The notes under the pieces: generated by a model | Databases searched by the model: none | What the model was told of the DNA's origin: nothing | Seen by the model: only the letters and a program-made list of their open reading frames with translations | Translations under genes and position numbers: made by a program | From: an uncultured Eubacteriales bacterium | Lineage (GTDB): Bacteria; Bacillota; Clostridia; Christensenellales; CAG-917 | Assembly: GCA_900548005.1 (NCBI GenBank) | Contig: URIZ01000001.1 | Location: 93,756 to 157,755 of the forward strand | Length of the DNA stretch: 64,000 nucleotides | Direction: 5' to 3' | Part shown: piece by piece, positions 5,412 to 53,997 of the stretch | Layout of the letters: each line of letters opens with the position of its first letter | How positions within the stretch are numbered: position 1 is the stretch's first letter

Positions 5412-5999
5412 ATGGCTTACAGACCGAAAATTAAGAATGCCAACGGCACTCTTACCGATTTGCCGTTGGAAGCCGAAACGTCGGTAAAACTAAAAACCGC
5501 AAGGACAATCGGTTTGTCGGGAGTTACTGCAACGGCTAAAAGTTTTGACGGGAGCGGAAACGTTACGATTCCTGTCACGGAAGTCCCGGTATCGCTTTTG
5601 ACGGGGTTACTTGAAAAAACATATCCCGTCGGAGCAATTTATATGTCCACGGTATATATCAGCCCAGCGTCAATCTTCGGAGGAACTTGGACAAGACTCT
5701 ACGACAGATTCCTCGTGGGCGGAGGTTCTGACTATTCCATAGGAAGTACAGGCGGCGAAAAAGCACATAAATTAACGACTACGGAAATGCCTGCGCATAC
5801 TCACTTTGCGAATAAATATAAAGACGGAATGAACTACATTGTGCATTACAGTTCTAATGAGACAACAGGCTTTAAAACTTCTGCGGGTAGTGGTGGGCAT
5901 GGTGTGTTGCTTGCTGGACTTGAGAATACGGGTGGTGGTAATGAACACAACAATTTGCCTCCGTATTTAGCAGTGTATATGTGGAAAAGAACGGCTTAA
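5412..5999 (+). CDS. Tail fibre protein with a phage tail-collar domain
   Basis: Contains PVGAIYMS...GGTWTRL...GGEKAHKLTTTEMPAHTH...GGGNEHNNLPPYLAVYMWKRTA, the hallmark of the tail-collar (MdpB-like) domain. GGGGG ribosome-binding site. Confidence 0.8.
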   Translation: MAYRPKIKNANGTLTDLPLEAETSVKLKTARTIGLSGVTATAKSFDGSGNVTIPVTEVPVSLLTGLLEKTYPVGAIYMSTVYISPASIFGGTWTRLYDRFLVGGGSDYSIGSTGGEKAHKLTTTEMPAHTHFANKYKDGMNYIVHYSSNETTGFKTSAGSGGHGVLLAGLENTGGGNEHNNLPPYLAVYMWKRTA

Positions 6000-10672: not shown

Positions 10673-10748
10673 TGGTGGAGACAAGGGGATTCGAACCCCT
10701 GGCCTTTTGAATGCCATTCAAACGCGCTACCAACTGCGCCATGCCCCC
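10673..10748 (-). tRNA. tRNA-Ala (anticodon GGC)
   Basis: The reverse complement folds as a cloverleaf: acceptor GGGGGCA/UGUCUCC with G3-U70, D stem GCGC/GCGC, anticodon stem UUUGA/UCAAA with loop AU-GGC-AU, variable loop AGGCC, T arm AGGGG-UUCGAAU-CCCCU, discriminator A, and encoded CCA. Length 76 nt. Confidence 0.95.
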
Positions 10749-25172: not shown

Positions 25173-26126
25173 ATGTTTGTAAAATTCTTGACAAGCGCAA
25201 TCGCGTTGAGCTCCGTGTTCCTTTACGGCTCAACGGGTGAAATCATCGTCGAAAAAGGCGGACACCTCAACCTCGGTATCCCCGGCATCATGAGCGTCAG
25301 CGCGGCAGTCAGCGCGCTTGTTGAATACGCGCTCATAAAAGGCATGGGTACAAGCGCACCGGCTTTGCTTGTGATTATACCAATCATCGTAGCATTTCTC
25401 GTGGGCGGACTTATGGGTTTGCTATACAGCTTTCTCACCGTCACGCTCAGATGCAATCAAAACGTCGTCGGTCTTGCAATGACCACTCTCGGCGTAGGAC
25501 TTGCGGGCTACTACATGACAGGCGCAGGCTCAAAGATCATGATCGTCGCAAGAGCAAGCAAATATTTCGCCACGCTTTTCGATGTGTCGGGTGGCGGCGC
25601 ATTTGCCAAAATATTCTTCTCGCACGGCATCATGGTGTATCTTGCAATCATCATCGCCGTCATCGCGCAAATCGTGCTCAGCAAGACAAGAACAGGTCTC
25701 AATCTCCGTGCCGTCGGTGAAAACCCCGCAACCGCGGATGCTGCAGGCATCAACGTTTCAAAATATAAATATGTCTCAACCGTTATCGGTTGCGGTATAT
25801 CCGGTTTGGGCGGTCTCACTTGCGTTATGGACTATATGGGCGGCAACTGGGAATACGTTCTCGAAGGCTTTGGCTGGCTCTCCATTGCACTTGTCATTTT
25901 CACGCTTTGGAAACCCGCATTGTCAATTCTCGGCTCAATCATTTTCGCCGGTTTGTACATCGCATCCTTCTACGTTGAAGGCATCTCGTTTGCGCAAATC
26001 GAACTCATCAAACTCTTGCCTTACGTTGTCACCGTTCTTGTGCTTATCATCACCAGCATGATCAACAAGCGTGAAACGCAAGCACCGGCGGCGCTGGGGC
26101 AGTCGTATTATCGCGAAGACAGATAA
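25173..26126 (+). CDS. ABC transporter permease (BMP-system, second subunit)
   Basis: Starts 2 nt after the previous stop, following AAGGGGG. Polytopic, with the motif TRTGLNLRAVGENPATADAAGINV typical of this permease family. Confidence 0.85.
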   Translation: MFVKFLTSAIALSSVFLYGSTGEIIVEKGGHLNLGIPGIMSVSAAVSALVEYALIKGMGTSAPALLVIIPIIVAFLVGGLMGLLYSFLTVTLRCNQNVVGLAMTTLGVGLAGYYMTGAGSKIMIVARASKYFATLFDVSGGGAFAKIFFSHGIMVYLAIIIAVIAQIVLSKTRTGLNLRAVGENPATADAAGINVSKYKYVSTVIGCGISGLGGLTCVMDYMGGNWEYVLEGFGWLSIALVIFTLWKPALSILGSIIFAGLYIASFYVEGISFAQIELIKLLPYVVTVLVLIITSMINKRETQAPAALGQSYYREDR

Positions 26127-26251
26127 AAACGCGCTATTGAGCGAACAACTTCGGCAGAGCCATGCTCCCGTCAACTCATGTACTAAATGTACATTAGGGT
26201 TGCCGTTAGCGTGGCTCTTTCTTGTTCTTCATCTCAATATCGCGTTTTTAT
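26123..26251 (+). repeat. Long-hairpin element, copy A (129 nt)
   Basis: Near-complete palindrome centred at 26186. Outer stem ATAAAAACGCG/CGCGTTTTTAT, then TATTGAG/CTCAATA, GAACAA/TTGTTC, AGAGCCATGCT/AGCGTGGCTCT, and apical ATGTAC-TAAAT-GTACAT. Confidence 0.85.
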
Positions 26252-26362
26252 AGTTTTGATTTGTTAGATTTTTATCTCACTAACCGCGCCGAAAATCTTT
26301 GACAGTTCTATCACGGGCAAAAACTCCAGCCGCAATTTCGCAAGATTGTCGGCTTGGTGATT

Positions 26363-26455
26363 GTAGGGTGGGACACCCACACCCGATTTAGAATAATCGA
26401 CAATTATCAAATTATCCGTGTCATTCTGAGCGTAGTCGAAGAATCTAGCGTAGCG
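26363..26455 (+). repeat. Modular intergenic repeat unit (GGGTGGGACACCCACACCC ... GTCATTCTGAGCGTAGTCGAAGAATC)
   Basis: About 93% identical to the reverse complement of 53712-53806. A second same-strand copy lies at 26618-26720. Confidence 0.85.
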
Positions 26456-26617
26456 AAAATGCGCCTGACGGCTAGATGTTTCGACAGGCTACTCGCAACT
26501 GCTATGCTTGCGCATAGAACCTGCGGTTTCGCCTTTTTCAAAGGCGTTGCTACGTGAATACATACGCTACGCAACCCTTGCAAGCAAGTTGCTCCGCTTT
26601 GCATTGACAACATGGTG

Positions 26618-26720
26618 GTAAGTGTGGGACACCCACACCTGATTGAAAATATTCTGTAGGGTGGTATAAATTATCCTTGTCATTCAGAGCGTAAGCGAAG
26701 AATCTCGTGGAAACGAAACG
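26618..26720 (+). repeat. Modular intergenic repeat unit, second copy
   Basis: GTGTGGG-ACA-CCCACAC perfect hairpin, then GTCATTCAGAGCGTAAGCGAAGAATCTCGTGGAAACGAAAC. The tail matches the reverse complement of 53712-53730. Confidence 0.8.
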
Positions 26721-26767
26721 ACAAACTTTTTCTGCGCTCGTGTCACAATTATTCATTATTAATTAAC

Positions 26768-26790
26768 AAAAAAAAGCACCGAAGTGCGTT
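26768..26790 (-). terminator. Terminator of the 62-aa gene (minus strand)
   Basis: The minus strand reads GCAC-TTCG-GTGC followed by TTTTTTTT. The stem is short but GC-rich, with a UUCG loop. Confidence 0.5.
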
Positions 26791-26797
26791 TTGGTCA

Positions 26798-26986
26798 TCA
26801 CCAGTCTTCTCGGTGATTGATTTTGACATCGTCATAATACTCAAAATACTTTTGCTTGTATCTTTGAGTTTCGTTGCGGTGACGTTTCAGTTCTTCACGA
26901 GCGTGTTTTTGCGCTTCGGTGAGTTCGGATTCGTCTTTTTCCGCTTTTTCATTGAGCGGTGTAAGTCTTGCTTTTTCGTAGTCCAT
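26798..26986 (-). CDS. Hypothetical Lys/Glu-rich 62-aa protein
   Basis: The ORF is followed by a hairpin plus U8 on its own strand. No Shine-Dalgarno sequence or motif was recognised. Confidence 0.4.
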   Translation of the reverse strand: MDYEKARLTPLNEKAEKDESELTEAQKHAREELKRHRNETQRYKQKYFEYYDDVKINHREDW

Positions 26987-49416: not shown

Positions 49417-50733
49417 ATGGCAAAAATGACAATCCGCGACGTAGACGTCAAAGGCAAAAAGTGTTTGGTGCGTTGTGACTTCAACGTGCCGATGGTTGAC
49501 GGTGTTATCACCGACGAGAACCGCATCAACGGCGCTCTTCCCACCATCCAATATCTCGTTGATCACGGCGCAAAAGTGATCCTTTGCTCGCACATGGGCA
49601 AGCCTCACAACATCTTCACGGAAGGTTTCGGCCTCAACAAGAAGGAAAAGAAGGCTGTTGAAGCTCTTCCCGAATCCGAGCAAGCGGCTGCAAAAGCAGA
49701 ATATATTGCAAAAGCTCTCAAAAACGATCAAAAGAAATTCACTCTCAAGCCCGTTGCGGACAAACTCGCCGAGCATTTCCCCGGCAAAGTCACATTTGCA
49801 ACCGATTTGGTTGGCGAAGACGCTCACAACAAAGTTGCCGCTCTCAAAGACGGCGAGATTGTTTTGCTTGAAAACACTCGTTTCTATGCAGGCGAAGAGA
49901 AGAACAGTGAAGACCTTTGCAGACAACTTGCAGACTTCTGCGACATCTATGTCAACGACGCATTCGGCACGGCTCACCGCGCTCACGCAACCACCGCAGG
50001 TATCGTTCAATACGGTTTCGCGCCCGTGGCTGTGAGCGGTTTCCTTATCGAAAAAGAGCTCAAATTCCTTGGCAATGCAATCGAACACCCCGTTCGTCCG
50101 TTCGTTGCGATTCTCGGCGGCGCAAAAGTTGCCGACAAGCTCAACGTCATCGACAATCTTCTCAACAAATGCGACACGCTCATCATCGGCGGTGGCATGG
50201 CATACACCTTCATCAAGGCTCAAGGCGGCAGCGTCGGTCTTTCTCTCGTTGACGATGAAAAGATCGATTATTGCAACACCATGCTCGCAAAGGCAAAAGA
50301 GCTCGGTAAGACCATTTATCTTCCCGTTGACACCGCAACTTGCGCAGGTTTCCCCGATCCTATCGACGCACACGTTGACATCGAATATTGCCCCAGCGAC
50401 GCAATCCCCGCCGACCGCGAAGGTCTTGACATCGGCCCCAAGACGCAAGAGCTCTTTGCTCAAGCCGTCAAGTCCGCAAAGACTGTCGTTTGGAACGGTC
50501 CTATGGGCGTTTTTGAAAATCCGCAACTCGCAGCCGGCACGAACGCCGTTGCAAAAGCCATGGCAGAAACCGACGCAACCACGATCATCGGCGGTGGCGA
50601 CTCCGCAGCAGCCGTTGCTCAACTCGGCTATGCCGACAAGATGACTCACATCTCAACCGGTGGCGGCGCATCCTTGGAATTCCTTGAAGGTAAGGTTCTG
50701 CCCGGCATCGCCTGCCTCAACGACAAGCACTAA
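49417..50733 (+). CDS. pgk: Phosphoglycerate kinase (with a ~37-aa insertion after the GKP motif)
   Basis: [28 protein letters not shown] and [14 protein letters not shown] are present. AAAGGAG ribosome-binding site. Confidence 0.95.
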
Positions 50734-50846
50734 TCGGCGAACAACTGCGTCAAATCGTTTTTTTCGCCCGTCACGTACGCAAAGTACGTTGGGCGGGTGA
50801 AAAAAACACTTTTCCTTGTTCTTCATCCGATTATCGCTGTCGTTGA
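50717..50846 (+). repeat. Long-hairpin element, copy B (130 nt), overlapping the last 5 codons of pgk
   Basis: Palindrome centred at 50781: TCAACGACA/TGTCGTTGA, TAATCGG/CCGATTA, GAACAA/TTGTTC, TTTTTTTCGCCCG/CGGGTGAAAAAAA, and ACGTAC-GCAAA-GTACGT. Confidence 0.85.
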
Positions 50847-50898
50847 CACGTGACAATATGAAGGGACAGAACATTCAATTTTCGCAATCGTTCGACAA

Positions 50899-51010
50899 GC
50901 ACTAATCGGCGAACAACTGTGTTAAATCAGTTTTTTCACTCGTCACGTACGACAAGTACGTTGGGCGAGTGAAAAAAGCAGCTTTTCCTTGTTCTTCATC
51001 AGATTAGCGC
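50899..51010 (+). repeat. Long-hairpin element, copy C (tandem to B)
   Basis: Centred at 50953: GCACTAATC/GATTAGCGC, GAACAA/TTGTTC, TTTTTTCACTCG/CGAGTGAAAAAA (12 bp perfect), and ACGTAC-GACAA-GTACGT. It is preceded by a 17-nt copy of the pgk 3' end. Confidence 0.85.
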
Positions 51011-51084
51011 GTGCGTTTTATACCTAGCGGAATAGGACGGAACAAAGGAAAAAACATATTGAAAATAAATTTTTGGAGTATATT

Positions 51085-51895: not shown

Positions 51896-53461
51896 ATGAA
51901 AAAACTTGTTTTAGTCGTTATGGACGGCGTTGGCAAGTCCAAGACGGGACTCGGCGATGCCGTAACTTTGGCAAACACTCCGACGCTTGACGCTCTTCTC
52001 AAAGAATGCCCCAACACCTACATCAAGGCGCACGGCACGGCGGTCGGTCTTCCCAGCGACGACGATATGGGCAACAGTGAAGTCGGTCACAACGCGCTCG
52101 GTTGCGGTCAAGTCTATTCGCAAGGCGCAAAACTCGTTGAAGAAGCAATCGAAAGCGGCGATATTTTCAATTCTGCCGCATGGAAAGAGCTCAAAGACAA
52201 CTGCGTTGCCAACTCGTCCACGATGCACTTCATCGGCTTGCTCTCGGACGGCAACGTGCACAGCAACATCGGTCACCTTATCGCTCTTGTCAAGGGCGCA
52301 AAGGAAAGCGGCGTAAAGCACGTTCGCATCCACGTTTTGCTTGACGGCAGAGATGTCCCCGCAACAAGTGCGCTCGTGTATGTCGATATGCTCGAATCCG
52401 CTCTCAAACAGCTCAACGACGACAACTTTGACGCATGCATCGCAAGCGGCGGTGGCAGAATGGTCATCACTATGGACAGATATTTCGCAAACTGGGATAT
52501 GGTCAAACAAGGCTTCTACACCCACGTTTACGGACATGGTAGAGGCTTTGCATCCGCAACGGACGCAATCGAAACCTACCGCGCGGAAAATCCCGGCGTC
52601 ATCGACCAAGATTTGCCCGCATTTGTCATCGTCAAGGACGGCAAGCCCGTCGGCGCAATGCACGACAACGACAGCGTCATCCTTTTCAACTTCCGCGGCG
52701 ACCGCGCAATCGAAATCTCTATGGCGTTTGACAATGACGATTTCAGCGGCTTTGATCGCGGAAATATGCCCAAAGTGCTTTACGCAGGTATGCTTCAATA
52801 CGACGGCGATTTGCATCTCCCCAAGAGATTCCTTGTCGAGCCGCCGCAAATCAAATATACGCTCAGCGAATTTCTCGTCAACCATGGCGTGAAGTCCTAC
52901 GCTGTGTCCGAAACGCAAAAGTACGGCCACGTCACGTATTTCTGGAACGGCAACCGCTCCGAAAAATTCAGTGACGCTCTCGAAGTGTGGGAAGAAGTCC
53001 CCTCCGACAAAGTGTCCTTCGATCAACGTCCGTGGATGAAGTCCGCAGAAGTCACCGACAAGGTCATCGACGCGATCGAATCCGATGAGTACGGATTTAT
53101 CCGCTGCAACTATCCAAACGGTGATATGGTCGGTCACACCGGCAATCTCGATGCCACAATCATCGGTGTCGAGGCAGTGGATCTCGCTCTTGCAAGACTC
53201 CTTCCCGTCATCAAGAAAAACGACTATGCTCTCATCGTCACCGCCGATCACGGCAACGCCGACGAGATGCTCGAAAAGAACAAAAAAGGTCAAGTTGCCG
53301 TGCGTACCGCGCACTCGCTCAACCCCGTTCCTTTCATCGTCTACAACTATGATTGCACCATCGCCGACGGCTCTTTCGGACTTTCCGATGTAGCCGCAAC
53401 GGCAGTGAAGATTATGGGGTTTGAGCCGGATGCTCACTGGGACCCGTCCATAATCCGCTAA
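51896..53461 (+). CDS. gpmI: 2,3-bisphosphoglycerate-independent phosphoglycerate mutase
   Basis: LVVMDGVG, GNSEVGHNALG, LSDGNVHS and TADHGNAD are iPGM hallmarks. Length 521 aa. Confidence 0.95.
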   Translation: MKKLVLVVMDGVGKSKTGLGDAVTLANTPTLDALLKECPNTYIKAHGTAVGLPSDDDMGNSEVGHNALGCGQVYSQGAKLVEEAIESGDIFNSAAWKELKDNCVANSSTMHFIGLLSDGNVHSNIGHLIALVKGAKESGVKHVRIHVLLDGRDVPATSALVYVDMLESALKQLNDDNFDACIASGGGRMVITMDRYFANWDMVKQGFYTHVYGHGRGFASATDAIETYRAENPGVIDQDLPAFVIVKDGKPVGAMHDNDSVILFNFRGDRAIEISMAFDNDDFSGFDRGNMPKVLYAGMLQYDGDLHLPKRFLVEPPQIKYTLSEFLVNHGVKSYAVSETQKYGHVTYFWNGNRSEKFSDALEVWEEVPSDKVSFDQRPWMKSAEVTDKVIDAIESDEYGFIRCNYPNGDMVGHTGNLDATIIGVEAVDLALARLLPVIKKNDYALIVTADHGNADEMLEKNKKGQVAVRTAHSLNPVPFIVYNYDCTIADGSFGLSDVAATAVKIMGFEPDAHWDPSIIR

Positions 53462-53574
53462 ATCGCGAATAGCATCGGCAAAGCCCCTTGCCCATCAACT
53501 CATGTACGATTTGTACATTAGGGTTGCTGTTCAAGGGGCTTTTTCTTGCTCTTCATCGATTTATCGGATTATGG
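53448..53574 (+). repeat. Long-hairpin element, copy D (127 nt), overlapping the last 4 codons of gpmI
   Basis: Palindrome centred at 53510: CCATAATCCG/CGGATTATGG, TAAATCG/CGATTTA, AAGCCCCTTG/CAAGGGGCTT, and ATGTAC-GATTT-GTACAT. Confidence 0.85.
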
Positions 53575-53635
53575 CGTATATATAATTTTTGCGTTATTTT
53601 TCTGATTGCGGATTATGGGGGCTTAAAACAATTTT

Positions 53636-53669
53636 GTCATTGCGAGCCGACTTGTTCGGCGTGGCAATC
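53636..53669 (+). repeat. GTCATTGCGAG...GCAATC hairpin module (variant of the GTCATTCTGAGCG module)
   Basis: ATTGC/GCAAT stem enclosing an inner GCCGA-CTTGT-TCGGC hairpin. The frame (GTCAT..GAGC....ATC) matches the ATTCT/AGAAT modules. Confidence 0.6.
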
Positions 53670-53711
53670 TCGCGGTAGCGGAATGATGTGAAATGACATA
53701 TATATAGTGCT

Positions 53712-53806
53712 GTTTCGTTTCCACGAGATTCTTCGACTACGCTCAGAATGACACGGAAAATTTGATAATTGTCGATTTTTCCAAATCGGGTGTGGGTGTC
53801 CCACCC
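53712..53806 (-). repeat. Modular intergenic repeat unit (inverted copy of 26363-26455)
   Basis: GTTTCGTTTCCACGAGATTCTTCGACTACGCTCAGAATGACACGG...CGGGTGTGGGTGTCCCACCC is the reverse complement of the 26.4-kb unit, at about 93% identity. Confidence 0.85.
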
Positions 53807-53810
53807 AACT

Positions 53811-53915
53811 GTCATGTTGAGCATAGTCGAAACATCCAGCCGCAAGGCGCATATCTTGTTTTTTCTTTTCGCTACGCTAGATTCTTCGATGCTCTCAGAA
53901 TGACACGGAATATTG
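53811..53915 (-). repeat. Second modular block (inverted counterpart of 26420-26502)
   Basis: GTCATGTTGAGCATAGTCGAAACATCCAGCCGCAAGGCGCAT...CGCTACGCTAGATTCTTCGATGCTCTCAGAATGACACGG aligns at about 80% with the reverse complement of 26420-26502. Confidence 0.75.
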
Positions 53916-53997
53916 GAATTTTACCGCTTAAAGCAAGCGATGCCGTTGCCGCGATGACGGCTTTTGTTCATTATTCATTATTTATTACTAATTAAGT

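Follow-up and report, generated by a model that had tools for sequence, protein, structure and literature searches.

Introduction

Among the closest described systems to the repeats reported here are the CGTC-tagged repetitive extragenic palindromes (REPs), in which the tag often reads TGTC (the variants being TGTC and CCTC) and the stem has 8-9 positions, starting with A-T and T-A (PMC3733652). In these REPs, the loop has 4-5 nt, the short 3′ tail is mostly CCA, and the elements are extragenic; they occur mostly as head-to-head dimers, often heterodimers, with structured and recurring spacers, and no dedicated transposase is known for them (PMC3733652). The CGTC REPs of Neisseria form large mosaic intergenic clusters interleaved with other repeat families, and the study reports CGTC REPs from five phyla without mentioning Firmicutes (PMC3733652). 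Here, we analyse a 64,000-nt stretch of contig URIZ01000001.1 from an uncultured Eubacteriales bacterium of the Christensenellales (hereafter the window), and in particular a 0.55-kb gene-free locus at 26252-26797 (locus 1), together with a second locus of related content at 53.6-54.0 kb (locus 2). Locus 1 is probably a mosaic of non-coding palindromic repeats, the counterpart in the Christensenella lineage of the enterobacterial REP and bacterial interspersed mosaic element (BIME) and of the Neisseria dRS3 repeat and neisserial intergenic mosaic element (NIME).

Three further systems provide a background to this comparison. Escherichia coli BIMEs bind integration host factor and gyrase, the Neisseria repeat dRS3 is a landing site for other elements and a phage integration site, and miniature derivatives of IS200/IS605 insertion sequences have subterminal hairpins and cause no target duplication. 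Mini-hairpin DNA of the type GCGNAGC/GCGNNAGC is known from phage and plasmid priming sites and from hairpin promoters (Hirao review 2026, PMC13037366), and standard energy parameters fail to capture such mini-hairpins (PMC13037366).

A probable mosaic of dispersed palindromic repeat families

Locus 1 lies between an ABC permease gene and a convergent gene for a 62-aa protein, and it is non-coding. The longest open reading frame (ORF) in the spacer has 68 aa, and no spacer ORF has a credible Pfam match, the sole match up to E = 1 being RICTOR_V at 17.1 bits against a cut-off of 27; a preliminary description of the locus, made from the letters of the sequence, had likewise seen no convincing ORF there. 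The most fitting reading of its content is a mosaic built from six or more dispersed families of palindromic repeats, namely P, M2, M1, the dimers E1/E2, X110, and an AT-rich tail.

Within the window, the M1 hairpin (GTCATTCTGAGCGTAGTCGAAGAATC) was matched at 26420-26445 (+, exact), 26679-26704 (+, 3 mismatches) and 53727-53752 (−, exact), where shuffled sequences led us to expect 0.00 matches. The G+C-rich M2 hairpin (GGGTGGGACACCCACACC) was matched at 26366-26383 (+), 26622-26639 (+, 1 mismatch) and 53789-53806 (−), against an expectation of 0.01. The two same-strand M2+M1 units of the preliminary description were recovered by the repeat search, with their limits refined to 26365-26446 and 26621-26705. 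The unit halves are separate repeat families (26365-26398/26621-26654 at 85%, and 26409-26446/26668-26705 at 89%), and since their spacings differ (256 vs 259 nt), the middle of the linker is not conserved. The whole-window scan placed a third unit, inverted, at locus 2 (53726-53814, −), which is 93% complementary over 89 nt to 26358-26446; additional inverted arms of 52 nt (90%) and 24 nt (100%) join the two loci. The earlier claim that locus 2 holds the same kit in inverted and rearranged order is thus borne out.

The largest conserved piece of locus 1 was overlooked when its content was first described as two units. This is the P element (26268-26360, +), a palindromic piece of ~80-93 nt that is present once in the window. 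It has imperfect 17-nt arms (ACCGCGCCGAAAATCTT and AAGATTGTCGGCTTGGT) and an interior that varies, and it includes the near-invariant 25-mer CAATTTCGCAAGATTGTCGGCTTGG. It is followed by M2 copy 1 (26366-26384, +; GGGTGGGACACCCACACCC) and a small hairpin, CGATT-TAGAAT-AATCG (26384-26399). M1 copy 1 (26419-26446, +), laid out as TGTC ATTCT GA GCGTAGTC GA AGAAT CT, is the left half of dimer E1 (26420-26614, +). E1 is a head-to-head heterodimer in which the 29-nt spacer TAGCGTAGCGAAAATGCGCCTGACGGCTA separates M1 (TCT stem) from an inverted M1 variant (GTT stem); it is uninterrupted in six other loci, and in the window it is interrupted by the 117-nt insert X110 (26491-26607, +). M2 copy 2 (26622-26638, +) is the perfect GTGTGGG-ACA-CCCACAC hairpin that had been noted before. 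The sequence TGTAGGGTGG at 26655-26664 (+) duplicates the 10 nt on the 5′ side of M2 copy 1 (26362-26371) and looks like the stump of another M2, the match being weak, short and of two copies. M1 copy 2 and the adjoining TCGTGGAAACGAAACGACAA (26678-26724, +; M1 GTCATTCAGAGCGTAAGCGAAGAATC, core GCGTAAGC) form the left half of the dimer family E2, complete members of which were found at 53636-53752 and in two other loci (L225 and L140; L numbers denote fetched loci). The tail module (26725-26766, +) ends in an AT-rich run, (ATTATTNATT)n TTATTCATTATTAATTAA, with TTATTCATTATTAATTAA at 26749-26766; the repeat number differs among strains, and tail matches are also present in L168 and L237.

Locus 2 is assembled from the same families. 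In its E2 dimer (53636-53752, +), a 57-nt spacer joins an M1 variant with a TGC stem and a long loop (53636-53669, +) to an inverted M1 (53727-53752, −). The inverted M2+linker+M1 unit overlaps this dimer, and a reversed E1 dimer (53811-53905, −) comprises a GTT-stem M1 (53811-53836, +) and an inverted degenerate M1 (53880-53904, −), with a spacer that provides the 24-nt exact inverted match to locus 1. A fragment of a further module, Q (53930-53969, −; GAACAAAAGCCGTCATCGCGGCAACGGCATCGCTTGCTT), is also present; in relatives, Q is located directly upstream of P.

To follow the modules outside the window, one metagenome scan was made with the M2 pattern, followed by blastn for each module. P, the M2+M1 unit, E1, X110, tail pieces, and a long-hairpin (LH) element described below were recovered from at least 25 related metagenome contigs, at sites other than the two loci; names of related contigs include 'human-gut-metagenome'. 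The modules are therefore not restricted to the two loci; such a restriction had been named as a refuting result in the preliminary description. A larger composite of Q, P, M2, small hairpin, linker and M1 recurs in the relatives, and P-M2 tandem arrays with a period of ~190 nt were observed in L203 (three copies) and L006 (two copies).

Polymorphism and probable exchange between copies in sister strains

Ten long contigs encoding an identical 62-aa protein were compared with locus 1, nine of which have the ABC permease opposite. In these nine sisters, the flank with the 62-aa and YhbY genes is 91-99.8% identical to the window, the 3′ end of the permease gene is 93-97% identical in seven and 68% identical in L004 and L007, and the spacer is 342-894 bp long, compared with 671 bp in the window. 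Side-by-side reading showed modules that are present, absent, inverted, truncated, replaced or re-inserted, taken from a kit of LH (three interior variants), P, M2, E1, X110, a ~400-nt G+C-rich piece, and the last M1 with its tail. The comparison with sister genomes thus demonstrates that the modules are polymorphic at locus 1, and the locus is actively being rearranged among strains of a Christensenella-like gut species.

L004 agrees with the window in its right flank and in most of its spacer, whereas its LH element and ABC operon belong to the 68% allele, which places a recombination breakpoint inside locus 1. The non-permease flank is 99.8% identical in L004 and 91% in L007, and the whole ABC operon of both appears to have been exchanged for a divergent allele. 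Hairpins are also replaced in patches. The last M1 of locus 1, between identical flanks, has the arms ATTCA/AGAAT in some strains and ATTGC/GCAAT in L003, L007 and L009, the latter version with the same or a different loop. For locus 2, seven sister loci with four distinct spacer sequences were available. They are near-identical to the window except for an extra upstream LH, a poly-G run (53617-53621; five G in the window against seven to nine in L360-L364) and a ~60-nt patch of M1 and linker; the window version of this patch matches locus 1 at 93%, and the sisters carry another variant. As the differences cluster in otherwise identical DNA, conversion between copies would best account for them. 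The earlier idea of a recombination array is therefore partly upheld, by the patchy hairpin replacement, which points to exchange between copies, and by the breakpoint inside the locus, but no sign of a dedicated recombination system was seen.

The ~400-nt G+C-rich non-coding piece (CGGAGCGTACTTATAAACGG...GGGGAAACTTGCATTTAGGG) was found in six sister spacers, in both orientations, and also in L139 (2760-3240), where it holds further nested pieces, and in L150. It always begins directly after the CCCGA of M2, and it has no Rfam match. In addition, three contigs end within the repeat loci: L001 116 nt past the permease gene, and L358 and L359 110-150 nt past a Na/H exchanger gene. The repeats would explain such assembly breaks at 110-150 nt beyond the flanking genes, and the contig ends are consistent with repeats breaking short-read assemblies.

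A nested insert at a fixed hairpin position

X110 is inserted in the inverted M1 of E1, with the junctions GGCT/ACTCGCAAC...GCATTGA/CAACATG. X110 has neither a target duplication nor terminal inverted repeats, and these junctions are the only clean ones observed. The M1 variant concerned, GTCATGTTGAGCCTGTCGAAACATC, is intact in sisters; in the window it is divided into its first 16 nt (26475-26490) and CAACATG (26608-26614). The degenerate inverted M1 that had been proposed at 26475-26502 is thus a true inverted M1 variant, but it is split by the insert and only 26475-26490 of that interval belongs to it. X110 occupies the identical hairpin position in three M1 variants (L168, L207 and L152/L229), the X110 of L152/L229 being only 80% identical, and the entry point in M1 orientation is CTG^AGC. 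X110 is missing from intact E1 copies. A longer, autonomous or protein-coding version was considered and rejected, as none was present in the fetched loci. Dispersed families, module-wise strain differences and an element nested within another element together give good support to the suggestion, already made in the preliminary description, of a nest of miniature mobile elements.

The modules could alternatively derive by decay from a recognisable gene, an insertion sequence, a prophage or a plasmid. Such an origin would agree with the ORFs of 154 and 244 aa that are called as genes across the ~400-nt piece in two sister loci, and with the subterminal hairpins and missing target duplication of X110, which resemble those of IS200/IS605 miniatures. 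No Pfam entry exists for these called ORFs, and their composition, rich in Arg and Cys, is junk-like; the locus itself has no ORF with a credible Pfam match, no longer coding X110 appears in the fetched loci, and the locus has no blastn match among 72,556 plasmids and 50,697 phage records. Decay of a recognisable element is therefore very improbable, and reading the gene-free region as repeat DNA guards against mis-annotations such as the 154-aa and 244-aa 'genes'.

Anatomy and distribution of the M1 hairpin

An exact search with an M1 pattern of 22 specified bases, GTCATTCTGAGCG-N(3-4)-CGAAGAATC, identified at least 120 stretches in genomes that span more than 15 phyla, as well as 106 viral stretches in IMG/VR. 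The hosts among the matches listed include Nitrospirota, Acidobacteriota, Chloroflexota, Bacteroidota, Verrucomicrobiota, Planctomycetota, Omnitrophota, Ignavibacteria, Fibrobacter, candidate phyla radiation lineages, several Proteobacteria, and Firmicutes families. The counts of M1 anatomy given below refer to 145 cross-phylum pattern matches among those listed.

The stem is laid out as ATTCT-GA-GC / GC-GA-AGAAT, so that two of nine positions are G.A instead of Watson-Crick pairs. A T precedes GTC in 121/145 matches, and the window copies read GTGTC and TTGTC at this 5′ tag. The free positions of the 3-nt loops are xAG in 128/128 cases, and those of the 4-nt loops are mostly NNAG. The core is accordingly GCG-N-AGC or GCG-NN-AGC, which is the consensus of mini-hairpin DNA (PMC13037366). 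Where neighbouring copies kept the core and altered the arms, 50 of the 69 were fully complementary, compared with 14.4 (maximum 22) under shuffled pairing; the alternative arm pairs include ATCCT/AGGAT, ACCCT/AGGGT, ATTCC/GGAAT, ATGCT/AGCAT and ATGTT/AACAT. Because the arms covary and the core is constant, the fold would be a TGTC tag, five covarying pairs, tandem G.A/A.G, G-C and C-G pairs, and a GNA loop. Covariation in the hairpins and in the P helix (below) shows, as far as sequence comparison can, that what are probably single-stranded folds are under selection. The middle of M1 is asymmetric at the duplex level, from which we infer that one strand acts single-stranded.

M1 is preferentially extragenic, with 27% of the matches in open stretches of at least 150 codons vs 82% of random positions, and 55/145 matches have a strict inverted partner 12-109 nt downstream. 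Within the 64-kb window, M1-type hairpins number seven, all of them in the two loci. G+C-rich hairpins accompany M1 across phyla in 23-24% of cases vs 12.8%, an enrichment of about two-fold on either side. Because the enrichment is merely two-fold and on both sides of M1, a universal M2+M1 unit was rejected; the M2+linker+M1 unit is clade-specific and only M1 is widespread. The ~95-nt unit put forward earlier therefore holds for its conserved halves, but not for the middle of the linker or beyond the clade. A hammerhead-like core was also rejected on reading, as CTGAGCG does not contain the CUGANGA core. Searches of the full-text literature for the M1 sequence and its translations returned only primer coincidences.

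Three side observations were made on M1. In three unrelated genomes (L092, L107 and L127), tandem 5′ halves of M1 (e.g., TGTCATTCTGAGATCCCTCCGG repeated) precede a complete M1, and the boundary of these half repeats is near CTGAG, the X110 entry position. In six IMG/VR loci (L266, L289, L293, L299, L354 and L357) and others, M1 lies 0-50 nt from the ends of the same shared genes; M1 occupies conserved intergenic positions in phage-like genomes too. In L046 (7160-7350), from a Fibrobacter sp. metagenome-assembled genome, two M1 copies are in or just upstream of a lipoprotein-like ORF, where one frame through M1 gives MKNSFPSVILSVAKNLAMLSIAAVMFVACGG, an example of a hairpin translated into a database 'protein'.

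Folding of P and the alternatives of RNA and protein binding

An alignment of 25 P copies showed two strongly conserved blocks around the variable interior. Across the 25 copies no frame remains open, and indels put the copies out of frame with each other. On these grounds, we rejected a coding remnant, e.g., a TnpB C-terminus overlapping a guide-RNA scaffold, as an explanation of P. RNAalifold paired ACCGCGCCGAAAATCTT with AAGATTGTCGGCTTGGT as a long-range helix of 15 pairs; in the divergent copies L174 and L200, two of these pairs have changed in both partners and remain paired. No compensating changes accompany the variation in the left arm of the inner P hairpin. P is thus a palindromic element with arms better conserved than the interior, as in miniature transposons.

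The preliminary description had first considered a structured non-coding RNA. The locus would then encode one or more such RNAs, e.g., a P-M2 small RNA with a 3′ hairpin, or a 3′ untranslated region stabilising the ABC operon mRNA, and the repeats would be paralogous RNA genes. The compensated P helix, a compensatory change from T-A to C-G in the M2 copies of L006, the hairpin upstream of GAGAGCC, which has three unrelated stems at one position, the P-M2 tandem arrays, and the strand-asymmetric features kept by M1 are all as expected of RNA, and the locus folds better than its shuffles (z = -3.9). The opposite strand, however, reaches z = -3.7, and such equal folding of both strands, as in palindromic DNA, singles out no RNA strand. 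No Rfam family was matched: at the gathering threshold, only tRNAs elsewhere were found in the window, six sister loci and 18 diverse M1 loci, and permissive scans of the locus itself and of the loci of four relatives gave chance-level matches only. Moreover, strains that share the flanking genes lack modules or carry them truncated or inverted, no convincing promoter was seen, M2 is without a proper U-tract, and the variation in the left arm of the inner P hairpin is uncompensated. With both strands folding equally, no Rfam family, and modules that come and go, structured RNA is unlikely to be the primary explanation.

Conservation might instead be due to binding, if the locus were a protein-binding or recombination platform for a nucleoid protein, gyrase, primase or site-specific recombinase. 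The near-invariant 25-mer in the 25 P copies would suit this explanation, as would the constant M1 core GAGCG-N-AGCGAAG within a covarying outer stem, the single M1 position always used by X110, the allele breakpoint and conversion patches within the locus, and the occurrence of mini-hairpins at phage and plasmid priming sites and hairpin promoters (PMC13037366). Against it, the searches made found no recombinase, integrase or transposase gene linked to the modules, close strains dispense with the modules, and the middle of M1 is not palindromic as a duplex, which argues against a simple dimeric site in double-stranded DNA. We consider a binding platform quite improbable.

LH elements and the setting of the loci

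LH element A (26123-26251, +) has a 92-nt conserved core between copy-specific complementary arms that start at the stop codon of the ABC permease gene (stop at 26126), the left flank of locus 1. LH copies are located in the window at 26123-26251, 50721-50850, 50893-51020 and 53448-53574, and also in five other loci (L168, L177, L200, L213 and L250). A survey of 23 copies showed cores of 90-92 nt (GCGAAYARC...CTTGYTCTTCAT) and arms that are unlike between copies yet complementary over 14-20 bp. The inner hairpin and T-rich tail are terminator-like, and the arms are often framed by an A-run and a T-run, as in the stem of an intrinsic terminator; it may thus be that the LH core enters the loops of terminator hairpins that were already in place. 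The core variant at one site differs among strains.

In the window, the iPGM gene runs into LH element D and stops within its left arm (…SIIR and stop, 53440-53465); the exact iPGM protein is not on record. In L360-L366, the arm sequence is intergenic and has an extra LH copy upstream of it. The window variant thus looks like the product of a deletion through which the gene was joined to repeat DNA and acquired a different C-terminus. It was previously held that the two loci share a start on a stop codon; at locus 2 this is incidental, as the arm is intergenic in sisters and the overlap in the window comes from the deletion.

Gene maps confirmed that both loci lie between convergent genes, as first described, and the terminator-like hairpins of these genes border both. 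The right flank of locus 1 is the 62-aa gene (26798-26986, −), convergent with the permease gene. Its intrinsic terminator (26768-26795, −), as read from the sequence, is A8-GCAC-CGAA-GTGC-GTTTT, i.e., a hairpin followed by T8 on the minus strand, and side-by-side reading found it kept in all sister loci. The 90%-identity cluster of the ABC permease includes UKI21168.1, a Christensenella sp. ABC transporter permease. The left end of the window may hold a prophage or phage remnant, as suggested by a protein with a baseplate Gp10_C domain (5412-5999), several unannotated ORFs nearby, and a tRNA gene (10676-10748; ~10.7 kb).

How the repeats may spread

The palindromic mosaic could have arisen as follows. 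The elements would be non-autonomous, and would act and be recognised as hairpins of single-stranded DNA; M1 retains strand-asymmetric features that fit such a form, namely the 5′ TGTC tag, the covarying stem, the tandem G.A pairs and the GCG-N-AGC loop. Some enzyme would copy them in trans to new extragenic sites. They would accumulate between the terminators of two convergent genes, where insertions are presumably cost-free, and copies would then swap sequence by recombination or gene conversion and undergo deletions, giving the module-wise strain differences and the allele-replacement breakpoint. The repeats may also affect mRNA 3′ ends or termination.

Several observations weigh against this reading. 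No clean pair of empty and filled sites with target duplication was recovered, and transposition itself is for that reason not demonstrated; recombination and deletion alone could make much of the polymorphism. All-against-all ORF clustering of 120 genome loci among the matches listed showed no recurrent gene family beside M1 other than generic ones such as ABC transporters. The recurrent ORFs within 600 nt of M1 are proteins of related viral contigs, unannotated and phage-like, with M1 a few bases off their ends, and the recurrent neighbours in the 106 viral loci did not match Y1 transposase queries. A tblastn search of 2.65 Mb with approximate sequences of Y1 transposases (IS608 TnpA and the E. 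coli REP-associated tyrosine transposase, RAYT) returned one weak match on an unrelated contig, and Pfam detected no transposase domain in 20 mid-size ORFs of the window. By nearest-neighbour thermodynamics, M1 as DNA has -1.9 kcal/mol, not better than shuffles; as this computed energy is weak, it is covariation, together with the published claim that mini-hairpins are under-predicted, that supports the hairpin. Finally, the compensatory helix of P and its near-invariant 25-mer are also compatible with an RNA or a protein-binding site.

A reading that joins these elements can be offered tentatively. M1 might be a near-universal single-stranded hairpin, kept nearly unchanged in more than 15 bacterial phyla and in phages by a non-RAYT mechanism (a shared host enzyme or a trans-acting mobilisation system), which serves both as a landing pad, with X110 entering at CTG^AGC, and as a gene-conversion module through which intergenic DNA is reshuffled; P with its 25-mer would possibly be a functional RNA or binding site of Christensenellales. 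The spread of non-RAYT REPs has been a question since 2013, and the literature search on the spread of CGTC REPs after that year found only a 2018 HUH survey. A lineage with many strain-level gains, losses and conversions at orthologous sites provides a practical test ground for it.

Comparison with known repeat systems

Compared with the CGTC/TGTC REPs, as described in PMC3733652, M1 shares the 5′ tag, a covarying stem that starts with A-T, a short loop and a short 3′ tail. It also shares the head-to-head heterodimers with conserved spacers, the extragenic position downstream of genes, the mosaic clusters, and the absence of a dedicated transposase. The M1 stem is unlike the plain 8-9 bp of those REPs, having five Watson-Crick pairs, tandem G.A and two G-C pairs. 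The loop is GNA/GNNA, of 3-4 nt vs 4-5 nt, and the tail is C-T/C rather than CCA, with TC after the final C in 66/145 of the matches listed. The host, a gut bacterium of the class Clostridia, is outside the phyla reported there, and the comparison was made with the text description; no matching sequence was found in the supplements of PMC3733652. The TGTC/CGTC-tagged REP type is thereby extended to a gut Clostridia lineage.

The BIMEs and REPINs of E. coli likewise have short palindromes in alternating orientation, recurring linkers, a position at the 3′ ends of transcription units, an inverted doublet as the likely unit, and high strain variation. The GTAG tag of E. coli is not present in M1 and is found in one of the three window copies of M2, and no RAYT gene was found by tblastn with approximate queries in 2.65 Mb. 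M2 copy 1 has the tag TGTAGGG, the other window copies have GTAAGTG and AGTTGGG, and sisters have ATAGG, GTGGGG, AACGGG and GAGCGGG; M2 was therefore rejected as a GTAG REP, since GT[AG]G is not conserved. Also unlike E. coli BIMEs, locus 1 combines at least six unrelated families with nested inserts. The general mosaic arrangement of BIMEs and NIMEs, i.e., alternating palindromes with other recurring motifs downstream of genes, was observed at both loci and in the 10 + 7 sister loci.

The Neisseria NIMEs, in which RS units are flanked by dRS3 (= CGTC-1), share the mosaic clusters and the CGTC-type hairpins among other repeats (PMC3733652). The landing of X110 in M1 is analogous to that of other elements in dRS3; the sequences and the host phylum differ, and no phage or IS110-type recombinase was linked to the modules here.

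Like miniature inverted-repeat transposable elements (MITEs) and the miniature IS200/IS605 elements known as palindrome-associated transposable elements, the modules are short and non-autonomous, with terminal or subterminal hairpins. P resembles MITEs in having arms, similar to terminal inverted repeats, that are more conserved than the interior, and X110 resembles IS200/IS605 miniatures in entering a fixed sequence without target duplication. Unlike MITEs, no module has a target-site duplication or a transposase parent that could be found; P, E1 and E2 have inverted arms, but not the combination of terminal inverted repeats and target duplication. With mini-hairpin DNA, M1 shares the consensus in all 128 of the 128 3-nt loops among the matches listed, and copy 26679 has GCGTAAGC; copies 26420 and 53727 differ in reading GCGTAGTC, with one extra T, and the known motif does not come from genomic repeats.

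The kind of structure seen at locus 1 is thus a known one. To it, the present analysis adds the specific families and the host lineage, an insert nested at one constant hairpin position, and an M1 that is nearly identical in different phyla.

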